Counted from the first letter of the stretch, positions 3,701-37,663 are shown. The stretch is 64,000 bases of DNA from Gemmatimonadales bacterium (GCA_039915645.1 JBDSMX010000285.1:238-64237); one strand, 5' to 3'. Notes: generated from the sequence alone by a model not told the origin. Numbers and translations are program-made.

Positions 3701-3860
3701 ACCCGCAGGCCTCAATGTGCCGCCAGGAGGTCTGATCGTCCACGCGCCTGGTAGCAGTCGCCCGGTACGAATCCTTCTCAACGGAGCAGCTGTCCAGGCA
3801 TCAGCGGACGGCTCCGTCACGCTCCGTGCACTACCTGCCCGAATCGAATTCACACCATGA
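735..3860 (+). CDS. Large secreted or anchored glycoside-hydrolase-like protein: N-terminal CBM-like module, F5/8 type C (discoidin) domain, C-terminal (alpha/alpha)6 GH15-like domain
   Basis: 1041-aa ORF with a hydrophobic N-terminus 'MIAAVLLAALIV'. The discoidin-like stretch reads 'AAIDGDSSTSWRA...YLRLDL'. The GH15-like motif is 'YERSWIRDGAL', followed by 'EFIYLAMEYFRHTGD'. It is coupled to flanking genes by 4-nt overlaps. The family call comes from motif memory only. Confidence 0.6.
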   Translation: MIAAVLLAALIVTSPHDTSRVLDSFDRIDSWSAHPADGVSLELHPDLGRRGRALRLDFGFTGGGYAIARRALDVPLSGNYAFTFWIKGRAAPNTLEFKLIDRSGENVWWYTERDRHFTGDWEKITVRKRQIAFAWGPKGGGELSEVAAIELVITSGSGGGKGSVWFDDLALTSMPDNGPYTLTPAIAASASRPGHLANAAIDGDSSTSWRAATARPSLTLDFLRRREFGAVSLLWEPGAAPAQVTLLASDDAKRWRVIGSRQRGGERANHFYLPDSDARYLRLDLVAASPARPVGLREWRIESLEAGASRNAFFKLVAGDSPRGSFPRYLSGEASAWTVVGVDGARDEALLGEDGAIEPGTGAFSIEPFLQVGGKLHSWSNVARSASLAMGKLPIPTVKWDLAGASLEITAFARGSATASRVIGRYRVTNRATAPMRGTLYLAIRPFQVNPPWQFLGTPGGTTRIDSLRWDRSQVTVNGLREVRALTPGARFGALPFAGGEIVASLQEQALPTATAVQDPFGAASGALAWPLELAAGASTTIDIEVPFDRGFLPPVRAAGVDTALQQVIRGWERSLDAAGVRLPGAGARIANTIASTLGYILINRDGPALQPGSRSYERSWIRDGALTSTALLRFGHAAEVREFLLWYAGFQYPDGKIPCCVDRRGADPVAEHDSHGEFIYLAMEYFRHTGDRALLTQLWPQVNAAVGYLDSLRRTHRTSEYRNGEQALYHGLLPPSISHEGYSAKAMHSYWDDFFALRGFKDAAAMATALGRPDDARRIGVSRDEFAADLFASIDAVMKTLHIDFIPGAADLGDFDATSTTIALSPVEELPRLPRAAVEHTFERYFTNASARSVAGSAWENYTPYELRTVGAMLRLGWKARALAMLDAFMADQEPTAWNQWPEVVWHDRTAPKFIGDLPHTWVGSDFLRSAADLFVYEREADSALIVAAGIPDAWLVGEGVTVERLSTWWGPLSYTAKRTATTTVVTVPAGLNVPPGGLIVHAPGSSRPVRILLNGAAVQASADGSVTLRALPARIEFTP

Positions 3861-6800
3861 CCCAGAAGCACCAGCTGACCAATGGCAGGTATCTCGTCGG
3901 GGTTTCCTCGGCCGGCGCAGGATACTCTCGCCTTGGAGATATCGAGCTCACCCGCTGGTCTGGCGACGATACGCGTGATGCCGAAGGGTTCTTCGCCTAT
4001 CTCCGCGACGTCGAGACGGGACGCTTCTGGTCCGCCGGCGTCCAGCCTGCGCCGCAACGACCGGGCTGGTACCGAGTCAGCCTTGCCCCGGGCCTGGTCC
4101 GCATCGTTCGCCACGATGAGGGGATCGAGATTCGCACCGAAATCTCGGTAGGAGAGACCGGCAACGTCGAGCAGCGCAGCTACACCATTCACAATATGGG
4201 AAAGGTGGAGCGGCAGCTTGAGCTGACGACCTGCATTGAAGTCGTCCTGAATGTGGCAGGAGCCGATGCCGGGCACCCGGCCTTCTCGAAGCTCTTTGTG
4301 CAGACGGAATCGCTCCCGGGAGGCGCAGGATTGCTTGCGCGCCGGCGGCAGCGCAGCCCCGAGGATCCCACGCTGTATCTCGGCCACGCACTCGTCGATC
4401 CGGCCTCGGTGACGACCGGAAGCCTGGAATGCGAAACCGATCGGGCCCGCTTCATCGGTCGCGGGCATTCGCTGGCGGATCCGGTGGCGATGTCCAGCAT
4501 GGCGCCGCTTTCCGGCACCACTGGCAACGTTCTCGACCCACTCTTCGCCATGCGGCGCCGGTTCACGATTCCCGCAGGGGCGACGATTCAACTGGTCGGA
4601 ATCCTGGCTGCCGGCAACACCCGCGAGGAAGTCGAAACCCTGTTGCGCGATGCAGCAGGGCGCCCGGCGGACTTCAGCGGTGCCGTCACCGAGGGCATCA
4701 TCGATTCGCTCGAGATGCTCGCACGTGAGCGTCCACCGAGCATCCTGCCAGCGGCGGCTGTTGCGGCGGTTGCGCCGGCGGATGAAGCGCTCCGATTCTA
4801 CAATGGCGTTGGCGGGTTCAGCGCCGACGGCAGCGAATACGTGGTGAGGATCGACCGCACCGAGGCCGGACTCCGACTGCCGCCGCTCCCGTGGACCAAT
4901 GTGGTCGCGAATCCCGACGCCGGCTTCGTGGCCTCGGAGACCGGGCTCGGTTTCACCTGGGTTGGCAACAGCAGGGAGAACCGGCTCACGCCCTGGTTCA
5001 ACGACCCCGTGACCGACCCGGTGGGCGAGGCGCTCTATCTGGTCGATCGGACGCGCGGCACTTACTGGTCACCGACGCCGGCCCCAGTGCCGGGCAGCGG
5101 CCCCTACGAGACCCGTCACGGCTTTGGCTACAGTACCTGGCGACATACGTCGTCGGATCTGGTCCAGGAGGTCGTCGCGTTCGTGGCGACCAAGGATCCC
5201 GTGAAGATCGTCCGCCTTCGGGTGACCAACACCGGTACCGAACGGCGATCACTCGCCCTCGCCTGGTACGGAGAGTGGGTACTCGGCGGCGTGCGCTCGG
5301 CAACGGCCGCCACCACGGTCACCGAGTCCGCCTCGAGTGGTCGCGTATTGCTTGCACGAAATTCCGGCAGTCGGGACGTCGCTAGCTCGGTGGCCTTCGC
5401 TGCAATCAATGGCGAATCGAGCACGCCGGTCGAGTTCACCGGCGATCGCGCAACTTTCCTGGGACGCTATGGCAGTGCGGCCGCACCCGAGGCGATCAGG
5501 AAAGACGCGCCACTCGACGGACGGACCGGTGCCAGTCTCGATCCCTGTGCTGCGTTTCGCATCACGGCGGACGTGGAACCAGGTGCCACGCTCGAGTGGT
5601 CGATTCTGCTCGGTCAGACCCCCTCCCGCGAGGCCGCACTCGGCATCGTGGCTCGCTTCGACACGCCCGATGCCGTGGCCGCCGAACTCGATGCGGTACA
5701 AGCAGGGTGGCGGGAACGCCTCGGAGCAGTACAGATCGAGACACCGGTGCCTGCCATCGATTTGATGGTGAATGGCTGGCTGGCATACCAGAACCTGAGC
5801 TGCCGCATCTGGGCGCGCTCGGCGATGTATCAATCCGGCGGCGCGTTCGGGTACCGCGATCAATTGCAGGACGCCGCCTCGATGGTCTATCACTCGCCCG
5901 ATCTCACTCGCGAGCAGATCCTGCTGCATGCGGCCAATCAGTTCGTCGAAGGCGATGTGATGCACTGGTGGCATCCCCCTGCGGGGCGAGGCATCCGCAC
6001 ACGCTTCGCCGACGATCTCCTCTGGCTGCCACTGTTGGCACAGTACTACGTCGACACCACGGGCGATCGCTCCGTCTACGACGAGTCGGCGCGATTCCTG
6101 ACGGCGCGGGCGTTGCACGAGGGCGAGGACGAAGCATTTCTCGAGCCCACCGATTCCGGTACCGCTGCGTCAGTCTACGAGCACTGCTGCCGAGCGCTCG
6201 ATCGATCGCTCGCCGCGGGAGTACACAACCTCCCCTTCATCGGGACCGGCGACTGGAATGACGGCATGAATCGCGTCGGCCGCCTCGGCCGCGGCGAGAG
6301 TGTCTGGATGGGCTTCTTCCTCTATGCCATCCTGGAGCGTTTCATCCCGACCGTGGTCGCGCGCGGTGAGGCCGAGCGCGCCGAACGTTACCGCGCGCGG
6401 ATGCGTACGCTGCATGCGGCACTTAACGAGGGTGGCTGGGACGGCGGCTGGTATCGCCGTGCCTATTACGACGACGGTGCGCCACTCGGCTCCGCCTCGA
6501 GCGACGAGTGCCAGATCGACGCCATCGCGCAGGCGTGGTCAGTGCTGGCAGGGGTGGCATCGCCTGAACGTGCAGCGATCGCACTCGACGCGATGGAGTC
6601 GCGCCTCGTCGACGAAGAGGCCGGGATCATTCGGCTCCTGACACCTCCGTTTGACAAGACTCCGCACGACCCCGGCTACATCAAGGGCTATCTCCCTGGT
6701 GTGCGCGAGAATGGAGGTCAGTACACCCACGCAGCGCTCTGGGCGGTGCGTGCGCTCGCGGAAGCGGGTCGACGCGATCGTGCGGTGCACCTCTTCGAAA

Positions 6801-7261
6801 TGCTGAGTCCGGTCACCCGAGGCGGATCACCGGCAGCGATTGCGACCTATCAAGTGGAACCCTATGTGGTTGCGGCCGATGTGTACGGCGAGGCGCCGCA
6901 TACGGGGCGTGGCGGCTGGACCTGGTACACCGGCTCAGCGGGCTGGATGTTCCGGGTGGCGTTTGAATCGCTGCTCGGCATCACCACCGTGGCGGGGCGC
7001 ACCCTGGTACTGCGCCCATGCATCCCGGCCGAATGGCCCGGCTTCACGGTGCGGTACCGGCTTCCGGGTGATGCCACACGGTACCGGATCGTCGTTCGGC
7101 AAACGAACGCGGCAAGTGCCGTCCGGTCGGCCACTGCGGCCGCGCGCGTGGTCGACGGTGCAATCACTATTGATCTCGTGCGCGACGGCGGTGAACATCT
7201 GGTCGAGGTCGATCTCGGCGATGACGTCGGGACCAGCTACCGGCCGAGTGCCTCGCCGTGA
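3857..7261 (+). CDS. GH94 glycoside phosphorylase, long form (1,2-beta-oligoglucan phosphorylase / cyclic-glucan-synthase phosphorylase-domain-like)
   Basis: 1134 aa. The GH94 catalytic-region signature is 'YQSGGAFGYRDQLQDAASMVY...VEGDVMHWWHP...GTGDWNDGMNRVG'. The N-terminus 'GYSRLGDIELTRWSGDDTRDAEGFFAYLRD' resembles NdvB/SOGP-type proteins. ATGA overlap with the upstream gene. Confidence 0.8.
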   Translation: MTQKHQLTNGRYLVGVSSAGAGYSRLGDIELTRWSGDDTRDAEGFFAYLRDVETGRFWSAGVQPAPQRPGWYRVSLAPGLVRIVRHDEGIEIRTEISVGETGNVEQRSYTIHNMGKVERQLELTTCIEVVLNVAGADAGHPAFSKLFVQTESLPGGAGLLARRRQRSPEDPTLYLGHALVDPASVTTGSLECETDRARFIGRGHSLADPVAMSSMAPLSGTTGNVLDPLFAMRRRFTIPAGATIQLVGILAAGNTREEVETLLRDAAGRPADFSGAVTEGIIDSLEMLARERPPSILPAAAVAAVAPADEALRFYNGVGGFSADGSEYVVRIDRTEAGLRLPPLPWTNVVANPDAGFVASETGLGFTWVGNSRENRLTPWFNDPVTDPVGEALYLVDRTRGTYWSPTPAPVPGSGPYETRHGFGYSTWRHTSSDLVQEVVAFVATKDPVKIVRLRVTNTGTERRSLALAWYGEWVLGGVRSATAATTVTESASSGRVLLARNSGSRDVASSVAFAAINGESSTPVEFTGDRATFLGRYGSAAAPEAIRKDAPLDGRTGASLDPCAAFRITADVEPGATLEWSILLGQTPSREAALGIVARFDTPDAVAAELDAVQAGWRERLGAVQIETPVPAIDLMVNGWLAYQNLSCRIWARSAMYQSGGAFGYRDQLQDAASMVYHSPDLTREQILLHAANQFVEGDVMHWWHPPAGRGIRTRFADDLLWLPLLAQYYVDTTGDRSVYDESARFLTARALHEGEDEAFLEPTDSGTAASVYEHCCRALDRSLAAGVHNLPFIGTGDWNDGMNRVGRLGRGESVWMGFFLYAILERFIPTVVARGEAERAERYRARMRTLHAALNEGGWDGGWYRRAYYDDGAPLGSASSDECQIDAIAQAWSVLAGVASPERAAIALDAMESRLVDEEAGIIRLLTPPFDKTPHDPGYIKGYLPGVRENGGQYTHAALWAVRALAEAGRRDRAVHLFEMLSPVTRGGSPAAIATYQVEPYVVAADVYGEAPHTGRGGWTWYTGSAGWMFRVAFESLLGITTVAGRTLVLRPCIPAEWPGFTVRYRLPGDATRYRIVVRQTNAASAVRSATAAARVVDGAITIDLVRDGGEHLVEVDLGDDVGTSYRPSASP

Positions 7262-8589
7262 CTGCGAATGACGTCGGAGTAGAAGCGCGAGCTGGCTTTC
7301 GGGATGCGGCGCTGATCGACCTTGTCGACGCGGAAGAGCCCGAAGGTTTTGGCGAAACCAGCGCTCCACTCGAAATTGTCGAGCAGTGACCAGGCGAAAT
7401 AGCCGCGCACGTCAGCGCCTTGGCGGATCGCATCGTGCACCGCCATCAGATGGGTGCGGAAATAGTCGACTCGCAGCGGGTCGTGCACCAGTTCGGCATC
7501 GGCAGCGTCCGTATCCAGGAAGGCCGCGCCGTTTTCGGTGATGTAGAGCGGAACCGCCGGATAGCGTTCCGTGATCCAGAGGAGCACATCGGTAAGAGCC
7601 GCCGGGTAGACTTCCCAGTCGAGCGTGGTGTGCAGCGTGGCGTTTTGACGGACGCGCCCTGCGCGGATCGGCAGGGCAGTGGGATCATCGCAGGTCACGT
7701 TTCTGGTGTAGTAGTTGATGCCCAGGAAGTCGAGCGGCTGCTGAATCAGGGCGAAGTCGTCTTCGGGGAAATGCGGCCAGTCGGCGCCGAAGATCTCGGC
7801 CAGCTCCTCGGGATACCGACCGAAGAAGACTGGATCGAGGAACTGCCGGTTCATGTAGGCGTCGGCGCGGCGGGTGGCGGCGAGATCTTCAGGCCGATCG
7901 GTCGCGGGATATTTCGGTTCGAGGTTCACCACGAGCCCCGCCGATTTCCCTCCCTCGGCGCGAATCGCCTGCAGCCCGGCGCCGTGGGCCCGGAGCAGAT
8001 TGTGGCTTGCCAGTGGTGTTTCGGCCGTGCTCTGATGGCCCGGCGCGTGCACGCCATGCAGATAGCCGGCGTCGGAGACGACCCAGGGTTCGTTAAGCGT
8101 GGTCCACATCGGCACTCGGTCGCCAAGGGTTCGCACAACGATGCTGGCGTAGTCGGCAAACCAGCCGGCGACATCGCGATTGAGCCAGCCGCCGAGGTCA
8201 TCGAGTGCGGCAGGAAGATCCCAGTGGTATAGAGTTACCGATGGGGCGATGCCTTTCTGGAGCAGGCGATCGACGAGTCGGTCATAGAAGTCGAGTCCGG
8301 CTTTGTTGATGCCACCTCGCCCGGTCGGGAGGACGCGACTCCAGGAGATGCTGAAGCGGTAGGCATTGAGCTCGAGTTCGCGCATCAGATCGACATCGTC
8401 GGACCATCGGTGGTAGTGATCACATGCGATATCACCAGTGTCACCGTTGTCGATCCGGCCGGGCTCATGAACAAAGCGGTGCCAGTTGCTGGGGCCGGCC
8501 CCGTCGGCAAGCGGCGAGCCCTCGACCTGATAGGCCGAGGTGGCGGCACCCCAGAGGAAATCGGCGGGAAAGCGGATTGTCTCAGACAA
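7237..8589 (-). CDS. GH1 beta-glucosidase
   Basis: N-terminus 'FPADFLWGAATSAYQVEG'. Acid/base motif 'TLNEPW' and nucleophile motif 'ITENGAA'. The start at 8589 is TTG. The 3' end overlaps the convergent GH94 gene by 25 nt. Confidence 0.92.
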   Translation of the reverse strand: MSETIRFPADFLWGAATSAYQVEGSPLADGAGPSNWHRFVHEPGRIDNGDTGDIACDHYHRWSDDVDLMRELELNAYRFSISWSRVLPTGRGGINKAGLDFYDRLVDRLLQKGIAPSVTLYHWDLPAALDDLGGWLNRDVAGWFADYASIVVRTLGDRVPMWTTLNEPWVVSDAGYLHGVHAPGHQSTAETPLASHNLLRAHGAGLQAIRAEGGKSAGLVVNLEPKYPATDRPEDLAATRRADAYMNRQFLDPVFFGRYPEELAEIFGADWPHFPEDDFALIQQPLDFLGINYYTRNVTCDDPTALPIRAGRVRQNATLHTTLDWEVYPAALTDVLLWITERYPAVPLYITENGAAFLDTDAADAELVHDPLRVDYFRTHLMAVHDAIRQGADVRGYFAWSLLDNFEWSAGFAKTFGLFRVDKVDQRRIPKASSRFYSDVIRSHGEALGR

Positions 8590-8603
8590 GGAAGGGCATC
8601 TCG

Positions 8604-9692
<1,089 letters not shown>

Positions 9693-9708: not shown

Positions 9709-11166
9709 TCACGGCGTCGTGCGACGCCGTGGAATCGCGGTACCGTGACATGCGGTACAGAGCTGCGGATTCTTCTTCAGCATCAGTTCCGCGTTGAAGC
9801 CGGGGCCGTGCGGATTGAAGCCTCGCCCCCCCACCACCGAATGACAGGTCAGACAATCGCGCTCAACGTGGCAGGAGACGCAACTCTCCAGCCCCTGTCG
9901 CGCGGCCTTGCCATGCCCGAGGAAGAACTGGCGATTGTTGTCGTGGTAGCCTGACGCCCCCAGGAGCGTGCGCTTCGCCGTGACGCCAGCCTGGTTGTGG
10001 CAGGTCTGGCAAAACTCGCCCGTGTTGTGACAGTCGGCGCACGAACTCGCTCGTGAGTAACCGTCTGCCGGATGGCGTGTGAGGTAACCAGCGGGGTGAA
10101 ATGCTCCGCGGCGCGCGGTGTTGGGCACGTGGCAGGTGAGGCACTCCTGCCGTTGATGACACGAGGCACAACTGCGATTACTCGCCGCCGCAACGGGCCC
10201 GTGCCCGGCCTTCCGCCACATCGGGGTATGGGTGGCGGGCATCTTCGCCACGGTCTGCGCACCGGCCGACCGACCAGGCGCCGCAGCGAGCAGGGCTCGT
10301 GCCGGCGCGGGCATCGCACCCGAGTGGCAGGTGGCGCAACTCTCCTGGGTGTGACAGCTGCGGCAGGTGGCTGCGTTGGCCCCTGCCAATGCGCCGTGGC
10401 GAGTCTCGAAGTCGGCCGCAGCATGCGAGGTGGGAGCCTTCAACACATGTGGGGCGAGCAGCGATCGGGGGTCCGGCAACAGTGCCTGGATACTGGCCAG
10501 CTCGGATGCATTCACGTGGCACGATGAGCAGAAGTCGCGCGCGTGACAGGTGGCGCAGCTCTGTGCGACCCGGGCCGAACCTGAGGTGTGTTTCGCCAGC
10601 GCGCCGTGCCCCTGCGCCGACATGAAGTTTGCCCCGCGGTGGGAGGGTGGAGCAGGGAAGGCACTGATCCGTTCGCGCGTGAGGGCCTTCGCCTGCGCGA
10701 GTGGCAGGTGGCAGGTCGCGCAGGCCGTGTCGGGGAGGGTGAGGTGGTCGCCTCCACCGGCAGTATGACAAGCGACGCATTGCGGTGCGACCGGCGCCCG
10801 CACCTGCATCCAGCTGCTGGCGGGGGGAGCGTGGCAGTCGGCGCAGGTCGAAGCCGTGTCGCCCCGGCTGCGGCGCGCGGCGGAATGTTGCTGGTGATCA
10901 AAGCGCAGGTTCGAGATCCGAGGCACGGTGCGCGGCTGCCACTCCACCCGTTTCTGCACGACCCCATTATGACAACTGGTACACGTCGCGGCCGGTGGAA
11001 AGGTGGTCGCGCCAGGCGCGTCGATGCCGGCATGGCAGAGCGCGCAACTGACGAAGAGTTTGGCGTGCCGACTGTGGTCGAAGCGCTCGAGCCGTTGTTG
11101 CCCTGCCGCTCGTGAGACGAGCAGCGAGCCGACGGCGACGGCGAGAAGCGTGAGGCGACGGATCAC
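9709..11166 (-). CDS. Periplasmic multihaem cytochrome c (16 CxxCH motifs)
   Basis: GTG start at 11166 gives the signal peptide 'VIRRLTLLAVAVGSLLVSRAAGQQ'. It forms a GTGA overlap with the upstream stop (11163-11166). I counted 16 CxxCH motifs. The ORF-track extension to 11631 is Arg-rich and overlaps the upstream gene. Confidence 0.85.
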   Translation of the reverse strand: MIRRLTLLAVAVGSLLVSRAAGQQRLERFDHSRHAKLFVSCALCHAGIDAPGATTFPPAATCTSCHNGVVQKRVEWQPRTVPRISNLRFDHQQHSAARRSRGDTASTCADCHAPPASSWMQVRAPVAPQCVACHTAGGGDHLTLPDTACATCHLPLAQAKALTRERISAFPAPPSHRGANFMSAQGHGALAKHTSGSARVAQSCATCHARDFCSSCHVNASELASIQALLPDPRSLLAPHVLKAPTSHAAADFETRHGALAGANAATCRSCHTQESCATCHSGAMPAPARALLAAAPGRSAGAQTVAKMPATHTPMWRKAGHGPVAAASNRSCASCHQRQECLTCHVPNTARRGAFHPAGYLTRHPADGYSRASSCADCHNTGEFCQTCHNQAGVTAKRTLLGASGYHDNNRQFFLGHGKAARQGLESCVSCHVERDCLTCHSVVGGRGFNPHGPGFNAELMLKKNPQLCTACHGTAIPRRRTTP

Positions 11167-12653
11167 GGGGCACGGCTCGCGGGTGGGAGCAGCCAGCGAT
11201 CGGCCGATGATTTGAGCGTGACACTGACGCGTGCGCTGAGACGCCACTGGTTCCAGTCGAAGGCCAGCGCATCGGGGCGGTCGCGCGATTCCCAGTAACG
11301 ATCGGCCGAGACGCCAGCGCGCCACCGGTCGCCAACGTGGTAGTCCAGTGCCGCACCGGCCCAACGGACACCAGCATCCTGGAACCGGAGCTCCAGCGGC
11401 CGCTCGAGCGATCCGCCGTTGAGGGAGAGGTCGACCCGCTCCCGAGCGCGCCAGACGACCCGTCCATCGATGCCACTCGATGACGCCCCGGGCTGCAATT
11501 CGCCGTGGCCGCCGAGCTCGACGGTCCACGCCGGCAGCGGAGTCAGCGTCGCCTCGAGGCCCCAGCGATAGCCGCGATCCTTGAGCGGAACCGCTGGAGT
11601 ATTTGCTTCGGCGTCCTGATACCGGAACCACTCTCCGCGTCCCCGAAGCTGCAGGCGACTGATCGGTGTGACGGCGAGCGTGGCGATGGCGCCATCATAT
11701 GGCACTGCGCTGAAGACACCCCAGACAGTCCAGAGGTCGAAGTAGGGCCGGTAGTGCTTGGCCCCGAGCGTGGCCCACACGCGCTTGCCGCTGTAGCCGA
11801 TGGTCGCATCCGCCGAACCGACTCGTCCCTGGGCAATGTCGTAATCGGCGCCGGTCACGATGCGGACGCGACCCAGCGGCCGGAACTGCGCACTGAATCC
11901 GGCTCGCTCAGCCACGATGTAGTTGGTCATCGGATCGAGTTCGCGACGGTACTCGACTTCGGCATCAAATCGAGGAAGATGAAATCCGCTGGTGACTCCG
12001 ACGACGATCTGGCGACTCTCAGGTTGAAAATCGAGGAGCGGGTTCACGGCGGGCGAGGTGATCGGCAGGATGGTGCCGCGCGCGAGGCCCCAGCCGGCGT
12101 AGGCGCCGAATTCAAGGCGGTCGTTGCTGGTGCGAAAGCTGCCTCTGATGCCATCGAGTCCGCTCGAGCCGCTCGCCGCGAGCCGACCGAGCTGCAGCAA
12201 CCGACCCGCCCGGGCCGTCAATCCACCGCGCAGGTATTCGGCATAGCCCTCGACGAGGCGAAGGGCAGGCGTGGTGCCGGGCCAGAGTCGGTCGCCGCTG
12301 AGGTCGCCCATTGTGCGGCCATTCATTCGAATGCTCAGGCCGGTGATGCCAAGCCCCCACATCGACAGATCAAGACCGACACTCGCGGGGATGCCGCTGC
12401 GAATATCGCCCGGACGATAGAACCGACACCACGCATCGAAGCCGCAGGTCGCGGCGAAACCGTCGCGCGTCACCGGCCCGGCACTGTCGGAGCGGATCAC
12501 ATCACCGGTCAACACGCTGTCCGGTGTCACACCGCGGAACGAGACGCGCTGCGCATTGGCGTCGAAGCGAAGCCGCCAGCCCTGCGCGGCGACGGGCATT
12601 GTGCCGGCAACGACGAACAGCAGGCAGGTGAATGCGGCGCGCGACGCTTTCAC
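11163..12653 (-). CDS. Haem-free secreted protein, putative outer-membrane beta-barrel (porin-like partner of the cytochromes)
   Basis: GTG at 12653 gives the signal peptide 'VKASRAAFTCLLFVVAGTMPVAAQG'. GTGA overlap with the upstream stop (12650-12653). No CxxCH motifs. Long runs of alternating hydrophobic/polar residues rich in G, R, Y and W, for example 'RVWATLGAKHYRPYFDLWTVWGVFSAVPYDGAIATLAVTP'. The barrel assignment is inferred from composition and context. Confidence 0.55.
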   Translation of the reverse strand: MKASRAAFTCLLFVVAGTMPVAAQGWRLRFDANAQRVSFRGVTPDSVLTGDVIRSDSAGPVTRDGFAATCGFDAWCRFYRPGDIRSGIPASVGLDLSMWGLGITGLSIRMNGRTMGDLSGDRLWPGTTPALRLVEGYAEYLRGGLTARAGRLLQLGRLAASGSSGLDGIRGSFRTSNDRLEFGAYAGWGLARGTILPITSPAVNPLLDFQPESRQIVVGVTSGFHLPRFDAEVEYRRELDPMTNYIVAERAGFSAQFRPLGRVRIVTGADYDIAQGRVGSADATIGYSGKRVWATLGAKHYRPYFDLWTVWGVFSAVPYDGAIATLAVTPISRLQLRGRGEWFRYQDAEANTPAVPLKDRGYRWGLEATLTPLPAWTVELGGHGELQPGASSSGIDGRVVWRARERVDLSLNGGSLERPLELRFQDAGVRWAGAALDYHVGDRWRAGVSADRYWESRDRPDALAFDWNQWRLSARVSVTLKSSADRWLLPPASRAP

Positions 12654-14590
12654 CCGGACTTCGCCTGCATCAGGTGCTTGCGATAGTCCGCCGGCGACTC
12701 GAGGAAGTGGCAGCTCGAACACTCGGCCGTGGGCTGGTGGTTCCGCTGCGGCTGGTGGCAGGTCAGGCAGAAGGTGCGCGAGGGCGTCAGTATCGCGATG
12801 CGTGAGGGCGTGTGGCAGGCATCGCAACCGGCGTGCGTGGCACGGGTATGGGCCGTGCGATTCTCGGCGCGACTGTGGCACGAGCTGCAGTCGCGCTGTT
12901 CGGTGTGATGCTGGTCGTGGCAGGCAACACAGGTGCGCACGCTGTCCGGCGGCGCGATGTTCGGCGCCTGATGGCACACTGCGCAGCTGAGTTGCTGATG
13001 GATCTCGTGACGGAACAATACGGTGCGAGTCACCGGCGCGCGGTTGCCAACCTTGACGGCGACGACCGTCGGCTTCGCCGTCGCGAGGCGACTTGTGGCG
13101 TGACAACGGACACAATCGCTCGCCACCACCTTCCCCGCGATGACCGACTGATGATGACAGAGATCGCAGCCGCGGGGCGCCTCGAAGACGAGACCGTTCT
13201 TGGCGCGATTGACGGTGTGGCAGGTGAGGCAGGGAAGCGAAGTGTGGCGGGCGTGCGGAAAGGTGTCCGGAGAGCTGCGGGCGGGGGCTTCTGCCCGAGG
13301 ACCCCCTCCGGGCGGGGGATCCTCCGGCAACGCGTCACCCTTCCCCCGGTGCTCTGGCGCGTCGACCTCGCTCTGGCTGCTCGCGGCCTCCGAAGTGGAG
13401 TGCAGCGGCACGGACACTGGGGTCATCGCAACGCGCCGCTTGAGCACCGCGTTGGTATCGAACGGAAGTGGCGGACGGAACTTCCCGCGGGCCCTCACGG
13501 ACGCATGGCAGCCGACACAGTCGGACGCATCGACCGAGGCTGCGTGCGGGTTGTGACAGGTCAGGCACTCGGTCTTGACCCGCTGGTGATTCTTGCCGTT
13601 GTGGAAGGCGCTACTGGCAAGGTCGGTATGACACTTGGTGCAGCTCGCCTTGGCATCAATCGGCAGTGCGTGGGCATGGACATCGTGGCACGAGCCGCAG
13701 CTCCCCTTGTGGGGATCCTTGGCGAGCAGATAGCCGGCCGGCTTGCCGTCCATCTGATGGCAGCTGCGGCACTGGGCCTGCGAAGGGATGAGAGCCTTGC
13801 GGGCAGAGTCGCGATCGGCCAGCGCCGGCAGGTCGGCGGTGAAGGCGTGGCAGGTCACGCAATTGATCTCGGGAAGCAGCTTCATTCCCGCGAGCTTGAT
13901 CGACTGATTGACGTGGCAACCGCTCTGCTGACAGGTCCGCGCTGATGGCAGGAAGCGATGCACTTCCGCACCGTGACAGGTCACACAGGTGAGCCCCTTC
14001 AGCGCACTGGAGTCCGACTCGAAATGCGCCTTGTGCCCTGCCAGGTTCCTGATGTGCTCCCAGGCCTTCTTGCCCCCCAGCAGCTGATGGCATCCTTCGC
14101 AGCGTGAGTTCGGTACCGGCGCGTGCTTGCCGATGTCGGTCGGGCGGTTGCTCACCCAGAGCACCAGCTGCCGGCTGCTCGCAAAGATGGACTGCTGGTG
14201 GCAATCGTGGCATTTCAAGTCACGGTGTTTGCCCGCCGTCTGCTGGAACTTGCCGAACGGCTTCTCCATCACGTGACAACCGGTACAGAAGCCGTTGTCG
14301 TGCTGCATGTAGTCCCAGCTGGTCTTGCCGGCAAACGCCGCGACCAGCAGGACGACTGCTGCCCCGCCGACGAAGGTGACTTGCAGCGGTCGGCTCCTGG
14401 TACGGACCCACATCGCGATGGCGGCACGATGACGCCATGCCAGCAGCACGACGACGAGTCCGACGATGGCGCCGAGCACGACGCCGCTGATCTGGATCCA
14501 GCGTGGGACCGCAAAGATCATTCGGACGAAACGGGCGACGCCCTCGGGAAGCGGCGGTGGCACCAGCGTATCACGGAGCGCGCCGGCCAT
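12650..14590 (-). CDS. Membrane-anchored multihaem cytochrome c: NapC/NirT-like N-terminal module fused to a long multihaem extension (19 CxxCH + 1 CxxxxCH)
   Basis: Two N-terminal hydrophobic helices ('WIQISGVVLGAIVGLVVVLLAW', 'VTFVGGAAVVLLVAAFAG') are followed by the NapC-like 'WDYMQHDNGFCTGCHVME'. 20 haem motifs including 'CQQSGCH'. The start is uncertain: ATG 14590 (used here) or TTG 14692. The ORF-track start at 14785 would overlap the upstream gene. Confidence 0.8.
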   Translation of the reverse strand: MAGALRDTLVPPPLPEGVARFVRMIFAVPRWIQISGVVLGAIVGLVVVLLAWRHRAAIAMWVRTRSRPLQVTFVGGAAVVLLVAAFAGKTSWDYMQHDNGFCTGCHVMEKPFGKFQQTAGKHRDLKCHDCHQQSIFASSRQLVLWVSNRPTDIGKHAPVPNSRCEGCHQLLGGKKAWEHIRNLAGHKAHFESDSSALKGLTCVTCHGAEVHRFLPSARTCQQSGCHVNQSIKLAGMKLLPEINCVTCHAFTADLPALADRDSARKALIPSQAQCRSCHQMDGKPAGYLLAKDPHKGSCGSCHDVHAHALPIDAKASCTKCHTDLASSAFHNGKNHQRVKTECLTCHNPHAASVDASDCVGCHASVRARGKFRPPLPFDTNAVLKRRVAMTPVSVPLHSTSEAASSQSEVDAPEHRGKGDALPEDPPPGGGPRAEAPARSSPDTFPHARHTSLPCLTCHTVNRAKNGLVFEAPRGCDLCHHQSVIAGKVVASDCVRCHATSRLATAKPTVVAVKVGNRAPVTRTVLFRHEIHQQLSCAVCHQAPNIAPPDSVRTCVACHDQHHTEQRDCSSCHSRAENRTAHTRATHAGCDACHTPSRIAILTPSRTFCLTCHQPQRNHQPTAECSSCHFLESPADYRKHLMQAKSG

Positions 14591-14702
14591 CCCGCCGAGG
14601 GAGTCGTGGATCTGAAACGCCGAACCCCCCGGGACACCAGTCACGGTGTCCCGGGGGTGCTGTAGCGCGAGAATGACGGGAGTGATCGTCAAACCCGCCG
14701 CA

Positions 14703-16253
14703 CTACTTCTGCATCGAGAGCGACTGCTGCATCGCGGCGGGGAAACGGACCTTGCCGTCGCCGATGGCCTTCTGGACTGCCGCATTCACGTTGGCCGGCG
14801 GAGCAGGGAGTGCGTACACAGCGCGGAGTTCGGTGATGTTCGCCGCGAGGAGGGCGCGCGCAAGCACTGGATTGTGCACCCCGAACGAGCCATCGCCGTG
14901 GCCGTTTCGGTTCTCGCCGAAGAGGCTGACGTTGAACAGTGCGCCCTTGGCCGGGGTGATCACCGTGACCGTGGAGAGCTCAGTCGGTCGATCCCGCTTG
15001 ATGATGGCGAGGTACCCGCCATCCACCGGCGCTGCATCGAGCACCTTGTTGCCATTGGTATCGAGCCAGATCTGGTCGGCCATGATCGCGAGGCTCGAGC
15101 GCAGGACCCCGAGAATCGACGCGGCGACGGCGGCCGAACCGTGACAGCCCGACGCGGTGCAGGATTTGAACGTGCGCGCCGTCGTGGTGTAGGCGCAGTC
15201 GGTCAGGCCAGTCGGCTTGCCGGTGCCGTCAACGCACGGGAGCGGCCGGAAGGAGTGGCCAGTCGAATGGAAGACCGTCGCACCACTTGCGGGATCGGTC
15301 ACATCGAACGCGACCACGTGGCAACCAGCACACAGCTTCGGGTTCGCTTCGCTCGAGTGGGTCGACAACACCGCCTGCGTATCCACCGAGACGCCCGCCG
15401 GGCGATATCCGGCGACGCCGAGCAGGACATAGCCTGCAGCACCGTGCGGCGAACTCGACGAGACCGTTGGCGAGCCACGGTTGAGGTGGCACTTCATGCA
15501 GAGGTTCTGGTCAGGATCAGGCGTGTTGATCGGGAACCGAAGCTGGTGCTCATTGGCGGAGCCGTGCGGATTGTGGCAGACCGCGCAGGTGGTGGCGATG
15601 TTGACCGTCGCCGAGTCGCGCTCCGAATAGTTGGTCGAGACGCCCCATGCCTTGAGCGCCGTCCGCCCTTCGTGGCAGTTCTTGCAGTTCGACGTCGTGT
15701 TGGCGAGTGGCGGCGCCTCGAGCTTGGCGTGACCACTGCTGGCCCACTCTTCGGCGAACGGCGTGTGAATCCCGGTGTGACACGCCGCGCAGCTGGCACT
15801 GGCCTTGGTGAGCGAGAGACGCGCGAGTGGCCACGTCGCCTTGTTCTCGGGCAGCTTCACGTGCTCGGTCCCGGGGCCGTGGCAGCTTTCGCACTGGACG
15901 TCCTGATACCCGGGATCGGGAAGCATGTCCCAGCCGACTTTGCCCACCAGGCCGTTGCCGTTTCCAGTCAGCGTGTGACAGGTATAGCAGGTCGCGGTGG
16001 CCTTGCCGCTCGCGACGAGCGTCGAATAGGCCTTGGCGTGATGGGTGGTAGACCAGTCGGCCTGATGACCCGAGTGGCAATTGCCGCAGGTCGTCTGCTT
16101 GGTGCTGGTGGTGTAGTAGCCGAGGAGTCCGCTGGCGACGTCCGGGGCGGGATTGAACGGCGCTCGGTCGCGATAGACGATGTCGGAGGAACTGCATCCG
16201 GCCAGGAAGAGGATCAATCCGAGGACATGACCACGACGTGGTAGAACCGACAT
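14703..16253 (-). CDS. Lipoprotein multihaem cytochrome c (8 CxxCH + 1 CxxxxCH)
   Basis: ATG 16253 gives 'MSVLPRRGHVLGLILFLAGCSS' with lipobox LAGC. Haem motifs: CGNCH, CYTCH, CESCH, CAACH, CKNCH, CAVCH, CMKCH, CAGCH, plus 'CTASGCH'. The C-terminal 'GHGDGSFGVHNP' is reminiscent of the helical region of NrfA/HAO-type multihaem enzymes (weak, from memory). Confidence 0.85.
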   Translation of the reverse strand: MSVLPRRGHVLGLILFLAGCSSSDIVYRDRAPFNPAPDVASGLLGYYTTSTKQTTCGNCHSGHQADWSTTHHAKAYSTLVASGKATATCYTCHTLTGNGNGLVGKVGWDMLPDPGYQDVQCESCHGPGTEHVKLPENKATWPLARLSLTKASASCAACHTGIHTPFAEEWASSGHAKLEAPPLANTTSNCKNCHEGRTALKAWGVSTNYSERDSATVNIATTCAVCHNPHGSANEHQLRFPINTPDPDQNLCMKCHLNRGSPTVSSSSPHGAAGYVLLGVAGYRPAGVSVDTQAVLSTHSSEANPKLCAGCHVVAFDVTDPASGATVFHSTGHSFRPLPCVDGTGKPTGLTDCAYTTTARTFKSCTASGCHGSAAVAASILGVLRSSLAIMADQIWLDTNGNKVLDAAPVDGGYLAIIKRDRPTELSTVTVITPAKGALFNVSLFGENRNGHGDGSFGVHNPVLARALLAANITELRAVYALPAPPANVNAAVQKAIGDGKVRFPAAMQQSLSMQK

Positions 16254-16559
16254 GCAACCTCCGGGAGACGCACAACCCTTGTCCATCGCAGCAGCCGGGA
16301 GAGTCCACTCGCGGCAATGACTCAATAGGACGTGGCTGATGATCGCCCCGGATCGATGAAGACTTGGTGAAGGTTACGTGAAACGTCAGTAGTCACACGG
16401 ACTCAGTATGAAGGTGTCGGGAGAATGCTGATCTGTGGCGTGGAGACGACGGGTACGAACGCAACAATCGTGATCTCTCAAATCGGGCACTCGTTCACAA
16501 GTCTTTGCTATACAACGAGTTGGCACTTTGCTCCTGACCTCGATTGTTGCCCCGGTTCC

Positions 16560-16575
16560 GGGCACGGCAGTTGCC
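16560..16575 (+). promoter_or_regulatory. Candidate sigma-54 (-24/-12) promoter
   Basis: gGGCACGgcagTTGCc matches TGGCACG-N4-TTGC with correct GG/GC spacing (GGCACG 16561-16566, TTGC 16571-16574). It lies about 80 nt upstream of ATG 16654 in a 400-bp intergenic region of lower GC. Confidence 0.45.
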
Positions 16576-16653
16576 TCTTATCACCCTGAAGAGCAGCGGC
16601 CATGATGGATCGGCCGGACCCAGTGCAGCCAACCGACCCCCGGAGAAGTCCTG

Positions 16654-17424
16654 ATGCGCGCGCACCCCAGTTCACTCATCACCTTTGCGGCGCTCGCCCT
16701 GCTTGCGGCTCCGTTGACCGCCCAGTCCTGGACCGCCATCGGATCGCCCAACAACGTGAGCGCCGGCCAGCAGTTCTGGGACAACACCTCGGCTGACGGG
16801 ACCTACTGCAACTCCGGCTATGTGGTCACCGGTGTCGCTGGAACGGCCGGTAAGAGCTGCGCCAATCAGCGCCCTGGCAACTGGCTGCCATACAGCGGCC
16901 CGACCCCCACGACCTATCTGCAGGGCGCTGGTGGTGGCTTCCAGGCCTTCCTCTTCGCGGCCGGCAGCTACTCCTTCTCCCTGTTGAGCGGCAATGCCTC
17001 GAGCGGTGGTGACATCGCCGGCGCCAACACGGACTGGGGTTATTACGACGCGTCGACCAATCTGCGGACCTCGCTCAACGGCGGGTTGCCCGGATCGGCC
17101 ATCACCTTCGGCGGGAACTGGGGATTGTACGTCCTCCTGACCAACGGCAACTACGCCTACTCCGGCCTCGACAATCAGTTCGCCCTCTTTGGCTTCGCCC
17201 CTCCGGGGAATGCCGGCACCAACTGGATTGCTGGTATCGAGGACATCTACACCGGCGCCAACGGCGGCTCGGACAAGGATTACCAGGACATGCTCTTCAA
17301 CATCGCCTACGATCCGCCGGCGAATACCGAAGAAGTCGTCCCCGAGCCGGGCACGATGCTCCTCCTTGGCAGCGGCCTCGCAGGCGTGCTCGCAAAGGCT
17401 CGGCGGCGTCGCCAGCTCGCCTGA
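16654..17424 (+). CDS. Secreted PEP-CTERM sorting-domain protein
   Basis: Signal peptide 'MRAHPSSLITFAALALLAAPLTAQS'. The C-terminal 'VPEPGTMLLLGSGLAGVLAKARRRRQ' has the form PEP motif + TM helix + Arg cluster. Confidence 0.85.
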   Translation: MRAHPSSLITFAALALLAAPLTAQSWTAIGSPNNVSAGQQFWDNTSADGTYCNSGYVVTGVAGTAGKSCANQRPGNWLPYSGPTPTTYLQGAGGGFQAFLFAAGSYSFSLLSGNASSGGDIAGANTDWGYYDASTNLRTSLNGGLPGSAITFGGNWGLYVLLTNGNYAYSGLDNQFALFGFAPPGNAGTNWIAGIEDIYTGANGGSDKDYQDMLFNIAYDPPANTEEVVPEPGTMLLLGSGLAGVLAKARRRRQLA

Positions 17425-26704: not shown

Positions 26705-28621
26705 TCAGCCTGGGGTCGTCGCAGGAGTCGCCTCCCGTGGCCGCCCCGGGCGGAGGACCCGACGGAGTGCACCATGGCCACCCAGTTCCTCCAGCAGCTC
26801 CATTTCGAGTGACCGGGCATCGGCGAGCTGGCCGGTGAACTCGCCCGCCGAGGCGACGTCGAGGGTGAGTCGCGCGAGCTGAAGACGCAGTCCTTCGAGC
26901 GCCGTGATAGCCGCCGTTTCCCGCTCGCTCAGCTGACGCTCCAGCAAGAGGTGGCCCGGCGACTGCGGCAGGCCGGGATCCGTCAGGTGGCGGCGCAGTG
27001 CCTTCATTTCGGCGATCCGGTGCCGCAGGCCGCTCGCGAGGGCAGGGAGATCGTCCAGCAGGAGTCGGCTCGACTCGGGGAGCTCGGCCCAGAGTTCCTC
27101 AATCGCGAGATCAAGGACGAGTTCGGTCGGTCGGTGCAGCGTCGTCTCCGGTGGGATCGCTCCGCGGAGGCCGACCGCCGCGAGTCGCGCGGCGAGTCCA
27201 CCGAGGCGGGAGCCCCAGAATCGCTCGGTCAAGGTCGTGCTGCGGCGGGGAGTCGTTCGGCGCATCCGGATCACGAAGGCGGCCCCGATCCCGGTCCAGA
27301 GCAGCATCCAGCACCACCGCGCCAAATCCACCACGACTTTCACGAACGGGACGAAGGTCTCCCAGTTGTGGACCAGCAAGGGGGCGTAGCGGATCGCCTG
27401 CGTCATCAGGAGAATGCCGCCGATCGAGAGCCAGGCGATGTCATGCATCACGCGGCCGAGCAGCGGCGGGGCTTCGACCTCCCGTTCGGCGAGATGCCGC
27501 TGGAGTGCGAGTCGCAGGTCCTCGAGACCGTAGCCTGCCCGCAGGGCGAGCCGGAGTTCTCGCCACTCGAAGATCGCTTGCAGCAGCAACGTCGGGATCA
27601 GGACGAGCAACGTGCTCCGGAGAATGGTGCCGATCAGGTCGAGCCCTTCCAGCGTCATCATCGCGGAAGTGAATGCCGATATCGAGAGCATTCCCACCAG
27701 CGGGGCCGCGAACGCCCATGCCGGACGGATCCGGGCGCCGCGCGAGACCCAGCGTTGCATCGGCGCCGCAAGCGTAGTGCCGCTGCCTGGTCGTTGCAGC
27801 AGCGCGAGCAGTGCTTCCACACTCTCTGGTCGCGCAGCGGGATCACGTTCGAGGCACCGTTCGATCGCGCGAACGACGCGCGGCGACGTCGCCGGTGCCG
27901 CGCTCGCCAGCGAGGGCAGCGGTGCGGTCACGTGTTGCAGCAGCACGGCGGCCGTGTCCTCACCATCGAAAGGGAACCTGCCGGCCAGCATGGTCCACGC
28001 GGTGATACCCAGCGCATAGATGTCGCTCACCGGTCCGGCGCTTTCGCCACGGATCAGTTCGGGGGCGAGGTACGCCGGCGTCCCGAGGAGCGGGCCTGCC
28101 TCGGCACGATCCACCTCGGCGGCGATGCCGAAATCCGCGAGCAGTGCCCGGCCGGTGTTTCGCTCGAGCAGGATGTTGTCGAGGGTGACATCGCGGTGGA
28201 CGATCCCCATTGCATGGGCATACGCGAGACCCCAACCCACCTCGTGCAGGATCCGCTCGGCATCCGCCCCGGAGACCGGGCCCTCGCGCCGCAGTCGACT
28301 GCCCAACGATTCCCCGTCGACGAGACCCATCACGAAGAAGACCACCCCGCCGAGTTCGTCGACGGCATAGATCGGGACGATATGCGGATGCGAGAGTCGC
28401 GCACCAGTTCGCGCCTCGCGCAGGAATCGCTCGCGCTGGTCGACGCGCGCGGCGAGGTCGGGATGGAGCACCTTGATCGCGACCGGACGGTCGAGCGAAA
28501 CATCGCGCGCAAGAAAGACAGTGCCCATGCCGCCGATGCCGAGCACCCGCTCGAGCGACCATGCGCCGGCCAGCGCGTCCTGCACCGCCTCGAGTGTCGC
28601 GCCCACCGATGCGCTGCTCAT
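26705..28621 (-). CDS. Membrane Ser/Thr protein kinase (Hanks type) with multi-TM and coiled-coil C-terminal region, paralog 1
   Basis: G-loop 'LGIGGMGTVF', 'VAIKVL', catalytic loop 'HRDVTLDNILL', 'DFG', 'GTPAYLAPE'. Hydrophobic helices follow after about residue 290. The start ATG overlaps the upstream kinase stop. Confidence 0.88.
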   Translation of the reverse strand: MSSASVGATLEAVQDALAGAWSLERVLGIGGMGTVFLARDVSLDRPVAIKVLHPDLAARVDQRERFLREARTGARLSHPHIVPIYAVDELGGVVFFVMGLVDGESLGSRLRREGPVSGADAERILHEVGWGLAYAHAMGIVHRDVTLDNILLERNTGRALLADFGIAAEVDRAEAGPLLGTPAYLAPELIRGESAGPVSDIYALGITAWTMLAGRFPFDGEDTAAVLLQHVTAPLPSLASAAPATSPRVVRAIERCLERDPAARPESVEALLALLQRPGSGTTLAAPMQRWVSRGARIRPAWAFAAPLVGMLSISAFTSAMMTLEGLDLIGTILRSTLLVLIPTLLLQAIFEWRELRLALRAGYGLEDLRLALQRHLAEREVEAPPLLGRVMHDIAWLSIGGILLMTQAIRYAPLLVHNWETFVPFVKVVVDLARWCWMLLWTGIGAAFVIRMRRTTPRRSTTLTERFWGSRLGGLAARLAAVGLRGAIPPETTLHRPTELVLDLAIEELWAELPESSRLLLDDLPALASGLRHRIAEMKALRRHLTDPGLPQSPGHLLLERQLSERETAAITALEGLRLQLARLTLDVASAGEFTGQLADARSLEMELLEELGGHGALRRVLRPGRPREATPATTPG

Positions 28622-33979: not shown

Positions 33980-34035
33980 TGCGCCCGGCAAGGAGTTGCA
34001 ACCCTGTCTCGGATCCTCTTCGGCGGTCAGCAGAT

Positions 34036-34611: not shown

Positions 34612-34612
34612 T

Positions 34613-37663
<3,051 letters not shown>

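Follow-up and report, generated by a model that had tools for sequence, protein, structure and literature searches.

This study concerns four co-directional genes, designated A to D in the order of transcription, that are located at positions 9709-16253 of a 64,000-nucleotide (nt) stretch of DNA from a Gemmatimonadales bacterium (GCA_039915645.1 JBDSMX010000285.1:238-64237; this whole stretch is referred to as the window). The four genes probably encode a porin-cytochrome conduit (PCC) that would link the quinone pool of the inner membrane to an extracellular redox partner. An undescribed variant of such a conduit had been proposed in an initial annotation of this DNA, and that reading was supported by our analysis. 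Three findings were taken to speak decisively against it and all three were looked for in silico: i) a non-barrel or a small barrel of fewer than 16 strands, where we find 22-24 predicted strands; ii) a lack of synteny, where we find the order A-B-C-D in nearly every relative with room for it, in differing flanks; and iii) orthology of the cytochromes to a known periplasmic reductase, where none of the cytochromes reached any of the corresponding NCBIfam equivalog cut-offs.

Gene structure and haem content

The start codon of A (ATG) has a GGAGG sequence 7 nt upstream, 8 nt separate the stop codon of A from the TTG start codon of B, and the coupling that had been proposed for the remaining genes can be read directly in the sequence as GTGA start/stop overlaps at 12650-12653 (B/C) and at 11163-11166 (C/D). 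Of the two potential start codons of B (Table 1) the upstream TTG is favoured, because the gene calls in relatives are 668-689 amino acids (aa) long. Terminator-like or promoter-like sites above chance level were not found inside the four-gene block, which is compatible with, but no proof of, a single transcript.

A motif scan returned exactly the numbers of haem-binding motifs that had been given before: eight CxxCH and one CxxxxCH in A, 19 CxxCH and one CxxxxCH in B, none in C and 16 in D, 45 in total. Residue-shuffled versions of each of the proteins contained three or fewer such motifs, and when the whole window is translated in six frames, 43 of the 51 CxxCH motifs are located inside A, B and D. 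The cysteines of the haem motifs are all at least 90% conserved in alignments of 52-75 relatives, and the motif CxxCK was not encountered in the cytochromes of the operon.

The barrel protein C

The 496-aa product of gene C had been described as a haem-free signal-peptide protein with beta-strand character and it indeed models as a large outer-membrane barrel. The AlphaFold2 model (45 homologues; predicted local distance difference test, pLDDT, 80; predicted template modelling score, pTM, 0.71) contains 23 DSSP strand elements after a cleavable signal peptide. Because the first of these elements (residues 25-48) is long enough for two strands, we read the barrel as 24-stranded, with a minimum of 22. 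A Foldseek search of the model against the PDB retrieved outer-membrane barrels only (probability 1.0), with query-normalised template modelling (TM) scores of 0.48 for PfeA (22 strands), 0.44-0.46 for the FimD usher (24 strands) and 0.25-0.39 for porins of 16-18 strands. From established barrel geometry (R = b/(2 sin(pi/n) cos alpha), with b ~4.4 Å and a tilt of ~40 degrees) 22-24 strands would translate into a C-alpha diameter of ~40-44 Å, a size otherwise found in barrels with an enclosed plug domain or in those through which folded pilins pass.

The long loops on one face of the barrel are its most conserved parts: their conservation is 0.58-0.99, versus 0.51 for the strands and 0.05-0.45 for the turns on the opposite face. 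The same long conserved loops are the least confident parts of the monomer model (two of them are listed in Table 1). Loops that are conserved yet apparently disordered would suit a partner-binding surface, and not a diffusion or nutrient porin.

The sequence of C yielded no match in Pfam or NCBIfam (E<=0.1), nor among the PDB sequences (profile search, none at E<=10). It does not belong to the MtrB/PioB family: there was no match of C to PF11854 or TIGR03509, none of the 45 barrel relatives matched PF11854 (MtrB_PioB) at E<=1, and MtrB was absent from the top 50 Foldseek matches of the model. Nine of these 45 relatives gave weak generic OMP_b-brl matches.

The multihaem cytochromes

The N-terminal region of B begins with a conserved PLPGG...VPQW sequence, followed by two hydrophobic segments with a basic loop between them and then by the sequence SWNYMQHDNGFCTGCH[IV]M. 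The region matches NrfH both as a family (TIGR03153, 8.4e-10, 38.8 bits versus a cut-off of 134) and in the PDB (2j7a_C, 9.5e-9), and B as a whole scores 19.2 bits against PF03264 (NapC/NirT), under the cut-off of 24.1. The remainder of B was matched in the PDB profile search by the dodecahaem wire GSU1996 (3ov0_A, 1.7e-10) and by HmcA (1z1n, 6.7e-9), and there is a weak local match (1.1e-4) to the chain 6r2q_A, mislabelled in the table of matches, which we take to be MtrA. Taken together, the matches suggest that B is an NrfH-like quinol-dehydrogenase module fused to wire domains of the c7/c3 type. The initial annotation of B as an inner-membrane NapC/NirT-like cytochrome thus stands as far as the NrfH-like N-terminus is concerned, but two hydrophobic segments are present and not the single anchor that was implied. 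The 20-haem fusion had also been called unusual, but there is a precedent in a 20-haem putative quinol oxidase of Carboxydothermus ferrireducens (PMC7829351).

Within the family, the PLPGG...VPQW sequence and an extra hydrophobic helix before the NrfH-type anchor (14435-14692) are found in the main Gemmatimonadales clade and are absent from two distant clades (represented by the loci L089 and L090, see below), where B has a single N-terminal anchor.

D has a cleavable signal peptide, and its N-terminus was matched in the PDB by HmcA (2e84, 3.3e-9) and by ActA of Alternative Complex III (ACIII; 6lod, 1.5e-8). Together with the five di-haem modules listed in Table 1 these matches characterise D as a putative Hmc/c7-like wire cytochrome. 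B and D have a haem density of ~28-29 residues per haem, as is found in MtrA-type wires (the residues-per-haem criterion for wire cytochromes was taken from PMC5566968), and about two conserved histidines per haem: 41-42 for the 20 haems of B and 31-32 for the 16 haems of D.

A is less densely packed, with 55 residues per haem, as in the globular OcwA. A profile of the A family retrieved from the PDB sequences OmhA (6qvm_A, 1.4e-12) and OcwA (6i5b_A, 1.6e-12), followed at a distance by 6r2q_A (2.5e-8), cytochrome c554 (1.9e-5), octahaem nitrite reductase (ONR; 2.7e-4, over 64 residues only) and HAO (0.04), and no NrfA or MccA at E<=1. The alignment with OcwA is colinear: haems 1-7 align with haems 1-7, a SxG[VI]HN motif in the C-terminal helix is common to both, and the invariant residues D454, S456, H460 and N461 of A are aligned with the C-terminal helix of OcwA and OmhA. 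In Pfam, A matches Cytochrome_C554 (PF13435) with 32.4 bits, above the cut-off of 20.8. Searches with the single sequence gave generic multihaem matches only, and a Foldseek search with the model of A gave nothing significant, the top, non-significant match being an octahaem nitrite reductase. Judged by the profile and the alignment, A is a clear homologue of OcwA/OmhA within the NrfA/c554/MccA superfamily. By eye, none of the four proteins had been seen as an obvious ortholog of the known conduit proteins; the lipoprotein A proves not to be an orphan. All tests for membership in the Mtr families failed.

OcwA and OmhA are cell-surface terminal reductases of the Gram-positive iron reducers Thermincola and Carboxydothermus that form one clade of the NrfA/HAO superfamily with c554 and MccA (PMC6703420, PMC9250108); OcwA is a reductase of iron oxides and electrodes (PMC6703420) and was grouped in an earlier paper with uncharacterised nonahaem cytochromes of Gram-negatives (PMC7829351). 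The homology of A therefore strengthens a reading in terms of extracellular electron transfer (EET).

Immediately after the lipobox, A has a conserved IV[YF]RDRxPFN segment, for which the pLDDT in the monomer model is below 50. This segment resembles the barrel loops in being conserved and disordered, as would be expected of a partner-binding surface. The C-terminal helical bundle was modelled with a pLDDT of mostly 84-98 and the haem region with only 50-70.

In OcwA the non-bonding distal histidine pairs H281/H282 and H380/H381 are situated at the two five-coordinate haems. In the sequence alignment the invariant H163 of A is aligned with H281 of OcwA, T164 with H282, and S267/S268 with H380/H381, while exactly nine invariant non-motif histidines are available for the nine haems of A. 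That the number of conserved histidines is twice that of the haems was considered as proof that all haems of A have bis-His ligation, and was rejected with OcwA as the counterexample: OcwA contains enough histidines and yet has two five-coordinate haems and one His/Met haem (PMC6703420). Histidine counts thus do not prove bis-His ligation, and a five-coordinate haem in A is possible.

Distribution and synteny

A word-indexed search recovered 186 relatives of the barrel, of which the named ones are all 'hypothetical proteins' of Gemmatimonadota. An exhaustive profile search (1.84 billion representatives) yielded 494 clusters at E<=1e-3 and 183 at E<=1e-30; among the 150 of the 494 clusters listed, the full-length relatives measure ~450-550 aa and many others are fragments. 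Relatives of the barrel are encoded by 400 stretches of the GTDB species set, and the best 80 of these 400 all originate from metagenome-assembled genomes (MAGs) of Gemmatimonadales/Gemmatimonadota, save one from a MAG labelled Bacillota. The latter stretch (JBLMWC010000189.1) carries the full set A-B-C-D at 42-52% identity, has a GC content of 69.5%, and is most likely a misbinned Gemmatimonadota contig.

Gene order was established by searching 88 loci with A, B, C and D (tblastn). The order A-B-C-D was found in nearly every locus with enough upstream sequence, at 40-80% identity and with different flanks, and D follows directly after C in every locus examined, down to a barrel identity of 26%. 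B-C-D is the invariant core, which keeps its 20 and 16 haem motifs at 26-33% barrel identity; the lipoprotein can be exchanged, much as Mtr systems swap their outer cytochromes. Two distant loci illustrate this. L089 (33% barrel identity), of a clade that was found in MAGs of Gemmatimonadales and Longimicrobiales, has a gene for an Rrf2 regulator followed by A, B (single anchor, 17+3 motifs), C and D (16 motifs). In L090 (26%) the order is: a sensor kinase and a sigma-54 regulator, an 11-haem cytochrome, cytochrome b561, a 13-haem lipoprotein and then B-C-D, where the lipoprotein is a different protein and not A, and where B has 17+3 motifs and D 16.

One gene call in L090 (2890-5295, 801 aa) joins the sigma-54 response regulator to the 11-haem cytochrome. 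A signal-peptide-like stretch occurs right after the helix-turn-helix domain and an anchor at the C-terminus, and the call probably represents two genes in one frame and not a real fusion. Outside the Gemmatimonadota, a relative of the L090 barrel occurs in a MAG of Ca. Eisenbacteria (JAWXBZ010000077.1), where the order is ResB/CcsA, an A-like cytochrome, a short B-like cytochrome (~11 haem motifs), C and D; this cluster adjoins genes for system II cytochrome c biogenesis (ResB/CcsA) instead of Ccm. A genome scan with the most distant barrel (P0385) returned nothing, and its clade was traced to the Ca. Eisenbacteria MAG by protein search. The matches listed from a scan with a degenerate DNA pattern were mostly due to chance.

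Expanded clusters of 10-11 genes were found in seven loci (L044, L046, L058, L060, L064, L073 and L080; e.g. L058:813-12922). Following A, these contain successively: a 169-aa open reading frame (ORF), for which no Pfam match was found, a cytochrome b, a 9-haem cytochrome, a diverged B (B'), an 11-haem cytochrome with a C-terminal anchor, cytochrome b561, C, D, a Rieske protein and a cytochrome b/c fusion. B' contains 21 CxxCH motifs and scores 34.8 bits against PF03264, above the cut-off of 24.1. A replacement of B by the 11-haem cytochrome and cytochrome b561 had been considered for these loci and was found to be wrong: the diverged 21-haem B' is present and the modules have been added.

The neighbours of the operon were counted in the 44 loci with at least 3 kb of upstream sequence (including a few duplicates), with ORFs selected by a GC3-GC2 filter in view of the GC content of the DNA (65-70%). 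CcmF was found in 12 of these loci, CcmE in 10 and an uptake NiFe hydrogenase in nine; the neighbours in other loci include Rieske/cytochrome b, cytochrome b561 with an 11-haem cytochrome, ResB/CcsA and an Rrf2 regulator.

In three distinct loci a molybdopterin oxidoreductase cluster lies directly downstream of D (L003:11048-17134, L007:11110-17515 and L035:11269-13683; L004 and L008 are duplicates of the first two). In L003 and L007 it encodes a molybdenum subunit, two small cytochromes, an iron-sulfur (FeS) protein and NrfD, in L007 also a NapD-like chaperone, and for L035 the molybdenum subunit alone was examined. The arrangement recalls dmsEFAB of Shewanella, but the cluster has a membrane module of its own.

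Proposed mechanism and alternatives

The mechanism that we infer from the gene structure, motifs, targeting signals, predicted barrel fold, homologies, synteny and neighbourhoods would start with B in the inner membrane, the NrfH/CymA-like first module of which would exchange electrons with (mena)quinol. The remaining ~16 haems of B (~28 residues per haem) could then serve as a wire across the periplasm, in two blocks on a flexible linker, and hand the electrons to D (29 residues per haem). D may reside inside the barrel C, as MtrA does in MtrB; it is the likeliest lumen cytochrome, and its gene always comes directly after C and is translationally coupled to it. A, an outer-membrane lipoprotein, would likely be the outer end of the complex, in contact with an extracellular acceptor or donor. 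Outward flow, to Fe(III)/Mn(IV) minerals, humic substances or another cell, and with e.g. H2 or organics as donor, seems the most likely direction, because the characterised relatives of A are reductases and because an uptake hydrogenase, a donor that reduces quinone, is a recurrent neighbour.

The same complex could operate with inward flow, which we consider unlikely although a number of observations fit it. The donor oxidised at A or D would then lie outside the cell (Fe(II) or Mn(II), reduced humics, a cathode or a partner cell), and its electrons would go to the quinone pool or to oxidases, as in MtoAB/PioAB and as proposed for PCC3/PCC4. The expanded clusters, with Rieske and cytochrome b/c directly after D and a second cytochrome b upstream, agree with such a direction, for Rieske/cytochrome b modules serve branched or reverse electron flow in iron oxidisers, and an ACIII operon is present in the same window. 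Proteins of the NapC/NirT type can, moreover, run in either direction. For marine Gemmatimonadota, annotation could not separate iron oxidation from reduction (PMC11316326). The uptake hydrogenase that adjoins the operon in nine loci is an electron donor and fits a conduit on the acceptor side better, the closest characterised relatives of A are reductases, and no genes for carbon fixation or other lithotrophy were seen in the flanks examined.

It is rather improbable that A is an enzyme of the OcwA/NrfA superfamily that converts a soluble molecule (an N or S oxyanion, hydroxylamine, etc.) at a five-coordinate haem, with B and D merely feeding it in the periplasm and with C as a substrate channel or anchor and not a cytochrome sheath. 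The family of A does fall within the c554/MccA/OcwA clade (PMC9250108), haems 2 and 5 of OcwA have an open site and OcwA reduces nitrite and hydroxylamine (PMC6703420), the invariant H163 of A is aligned with H281 near haem 2 of OcwA, and it was an octahaem nitrite reductase that headed the non-significant Foldseek matches. However, neither CxxCK, CX15CH nor a match to MccA was found, the residues HH380/381 of OcwA correspond to Ser-Ser in A, and the invariant non-motif histidines of A number exactly nine for its nine haems. Moreover, 36 wire haems and a 22-24-stranded barrel whose loops are conserved would be far more than is needed to supply a periplasmic enzyme with electrons, and L090 keeps B-C-D although its lipoprotein is a different 13-haem protein.

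That the cytochromes are a periplasmic electron store or buffer, or a hub between respiratory complexes, with C as an unrelated co-transcribed outer-membrane protein, would agree with the many haems, the lack of a catalytic subunit and the varied respiratory modules among the neighbours, but is very unlikely in view of the adjacency and start/stop overlap of C and D, which are invariant family-wide down to 26% identity, of the loops being the most conserved parts of the barrel, and of one of the cytochromes being a lipoprotein with a conserved anchor-proximal motif.

Several points weigh against a conduit with outward flow. The case is entirely computational; the matches listed comprise MAGs and no isolate genome, and to our knowledge cultured Gemmatimonadota are not known for EET. 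The barrel C has no detectable homology to any validated conduit barrel in Pfam, NCBIfam, the PDB or Foldseek searches, and its monomer model is silent on whether the lumen is open or filled. The exposure of A at the surface is a matter of inference, and the neighbouring Rieske/cytochrome b modules would fit inward flow too. Finally, the superfamily of A includes catalytic haems, which makes a soluble substrate conceivable: two of the haems of OcwA are five-coordinate, and the protein reduces nitrite in vitro (PMC6703420).

Feature coordinates and surroundings of the operon

The positions of the genes and of the features within them are collected in Table 1. In the 400-bp intergenic region upstream of A no sigma-70 consensus was found.

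Table 1. Genes and sequence features of the cytochrome operon (positions in the window)
Feature	Position	Strand	Description
Gene A	14703-16253	-	516 aa; lipoprotein nonahaem cytochrome, OcwA/OmhA-like; 8 CxxCH + 1 CxxxxCH
A, signal peptide and lipobox (LAG-C20)	16194-16253	-	Cys20 invariant in 52 relatives
A, C-terminal helical bundle (residues 372-516)	14706-15140	-	AlphaFold2 helices 374-395, 434-445, 462-480, 487-503
Gene B	12650-14692 (TTG, 680 aa) or 12650-14590 (ATG, 646 aa)	-	membrane-anchored 20-haem cytochrome; 19 CxxCH + 1 CxxxxCH
B, membrane region	14327-14506	-	hydrophobic segments 63-86 and 104-122 flanking a basic loop; alignment of 59 relatives
B, first haem motif CTGCHVM	14267-14287	-	CxxCHxM, signature of NrfH haem 1; C136, C139 and H140 100% and M142 88% conserved
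B, low-complexity Pro/Gly/Ala/Glu linker	13232-13504	-	between the 11-haem and 9-haem halves; conservation 0.35; variable length
Gene C	11163-12653	-	496 aa; haem-free, predicted outer-membrane beta-barrel; unnamed family
C, conserved loop RPYFDLWTVWGVFSAVP (residues 302-318)	11700-11750	-	conservation 0.78 versus 0.51 for the strands; pLDDT <50 at 306-315
C, conserved long loop (residues 190-214)	12012-12086	-	conservation 0.68; pLDDT 35-42
Gene D	9709-11166	-	485 aa; secreted 16-haem cytochrome, wire-like
D, di-haem module (five copies; SH..F..HG..CxxCH-x4-5-CxxCH)	9832-10689	-	Pfam Paired_CXXCH_1, 5.3e-13
Presumed promoter/regulatory region	16254-16653	.	400-bp intergenic region 5' of A; putative role; shared with divergent PEP-CTERM gene

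The divergent neighbour (16654-17424, plus strand) encodes a 256-aa secreted protein with a PEP-CTERM sorting signal. On the other side the operon is flanked by a sugar-utilisation block (3857-9692), which was assigned by eye from the translations and contains: an ORF of 1134 aa taken for a glycoside phosphorylase (3857-7261, plus strand), an ORF resembling a GH1 beta-glucosidase (7237-8589, minus strand), and an ORF resembling the ATPase of an ATP-binding cassette transporter, which is convergent with D and ends 16 nt from the stop codon of D.

Further away, the ACIII operon that had been placed at ~18 kb is real and looks complete: it occupies 33979-42235 on the plus strand, at 17.7 kb from the cytochrome operon, and encodes an ActA-like multihaem cytochrome (33979-34611), a 1016-aa ActB with molybdopterin-like and FeS parts (34613-37663), an NrfD-type ActC (37665-39023) and a monohaem cytochrome c (39525-40127), along with two more ORFs for which no Pfam match was found. 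Tandem overlapping genes for Ser/Thr protein kinases of 638 and 615 aa are located at 26705-28621 and 28618-30465 (minus strand), and one tRNA gene (58424-58496, plus strand) is the sole Rfam match in the window at the gathering threshold.

Implications

A far-reaching version of the proposed mechanism, which we put forward tentatively and as somewhat doubtful, is that of a phylum-wide, hard-wired 45-haem conduit of independent origin, in which the wire-fused quinol dehydrogenase B passes electrons to D, threaded through the new barrel C, and from there to an OcwA-type protein A at the surface. If this were true, the respiration of minerals or humics, with H2 for instance, would extend to many soil and sediment Gemmatimonadota that are thought to be aerobic heterotrophs, and the OcwA/OmhA family of Gram-positives would, in addition, provide the outer end of a porin-cytochrome complex in a diderm. 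Gemmatimonadota belong to the commoner phyla of soils and sediments, and hardly anything is known about their anaerobic physiology. So far, iron cycling by this phylum has been deduced only from generic FeGenie matches (PMC11316326), and a conserved conduit in ~400 species-level genomes would provide a testable genetic marker of EET for the phylum. The few types of conduit known so far would gain a new barrel family, while the link of OcwA/OmhA to a diderm system would bear on the question how often extracellular respiration evolved. The barrel is currently annotated as 'hypothetical protein' and its profile could be added to annotation tools.

Comparison with known systems

According to the operational definition of PCCs (PMC4245776, PMC5566968), a barrel and a secreted multihaem cytochrome are encoded by adjacent genes, here C and D with their GTGA overlap, in a cluster with a lipoprotein or extracellular multihaem cytochrome, here A with its invariant lipobox.

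The resemblance to the Mtr, Mto and Pio systems is in the parts: a wire cytochrome beside a large barrel, a lipoprotein cytochrome and a quinol dehydrogenase of the NapC/NirT type (CymA). In addition, A and B show weak local matches to MtrA (6r2q_A, 2.5e-8 and 1.1e-4). The differences are as follows: C is predicted to have ~22-24 strands and the MtrB barrel has 26, with 16, 9 and 20 the haem counts depart from the 10, 10 and 4 of those systems, the lipoprotein A is like OcwA and not like MtrC/OmcA, and the quinol dehydrogenase appears to be fused to a 16-haem wire and is encoded in the operon. The MtrA/DmsE family (TIGR03508, cut-off 192 bits) was matched with 46.4 bits by A, 21.9 by D and 18.0 by B, all below the cut-off, and the MtrC/OmcA family (TIGR03507, cut-off 209 bits) with at best 13-14 bits (B and D) and not at all by A.

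With OmaB-OmbB-OmcB and Ext of Geobacter the cluster shares the composition of the operon, i.e. a periplasmic multihaem cytochrome, a porin-like barrel and a lipoprotein cytochrome (PMC4282303, PMC6148476). In the Pcc proteins the haem numbers are 8 and 12, however, and those operons contain no inner-membrane quinol dehydrogenase. This comparison with OmbB and Ext is one of gene content and cytochrome profiles and not of barrel sequences; the sole match to a Geobacter family, the GSU2203 decahaem family, scored 47.8 bits and fails the cut-off of 325. The genome-predicted PCC3 and PCC4 likewise have a barrel and very haem-rich wire cytochromes (~30 residues per haem), and one cluster also has an inner-membrane redox protein (PMC5566968). 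There, the latter is a five-helix di-haem-b-like protein and the hosts are mostly proteobacterial, whereas here, comparing by description and not by sequence, an NrfH-like module would be fused to a wire, the lipoprotein resembles OcwA and the cluster occurs in Gemmatimonadota and Eisenbacteria.

As for the separate cytochromes, B resembles NrfH, CymA and the NapC/NirT proteins in the N-terminal anchor that is followed directly by CxxCHxM and a second haem; it differs in having 20 haems versus four, in the extra N-terminal hydrophobic segment of the main clade and in scores below the curated cut-offs. The C-terminal half of B, as well as D, appears to be built from modules of the c7/c3 type and of the paired-CxxCH type, in which it resembles GSU1996 and HmcA, and D has 16 haems like HmcA; it scores 23.6 bits against the HmcA family (NF045713, cut-off 400), and context and module order differ as well. 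With the catalytic multihaem reductases (NrfA, ONR, MccA, HAO) none of the cytochromes shares CxxCK, CX15CH or a strong family match.

The lipoprotein A has nine haem motifs and a length of ~500 aa in common with OcwA of Thermincola potens (6I5B) and OmhA of Carboxydothermus ferrireducens (6QVM), and like these it combines a c554-like N-module with an NrfA-like C-module and has a helical bundle at the C-terminus. It differs in that: i) it is a lipoprotein of a diderm and is encoded with a barrel; ii) it is without the beta-sheet insertion between haems 1 and 2 and has CxxxxCH as its ninth motif; and iii) the HH380/381 pocket is replaced by Ser-Ser and one histidine (H163) is kept of HH281/282.

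Our full-text literature searches retrieved no paper that describes this cluster. A survey of marine Gemmatimonadota contains generic FeGenie matches only (MtrABC in three MAGs, Cyc2 and homologues of 'DFE_461-465'; PMC11316326), and some of these might be the cytochromes described here. Compared with the systems above, what appears to be new is that an OcwA-type lipoprotein and a quinol dehydrogenase fused to a wire are combined with a barrel of an unnamed family.

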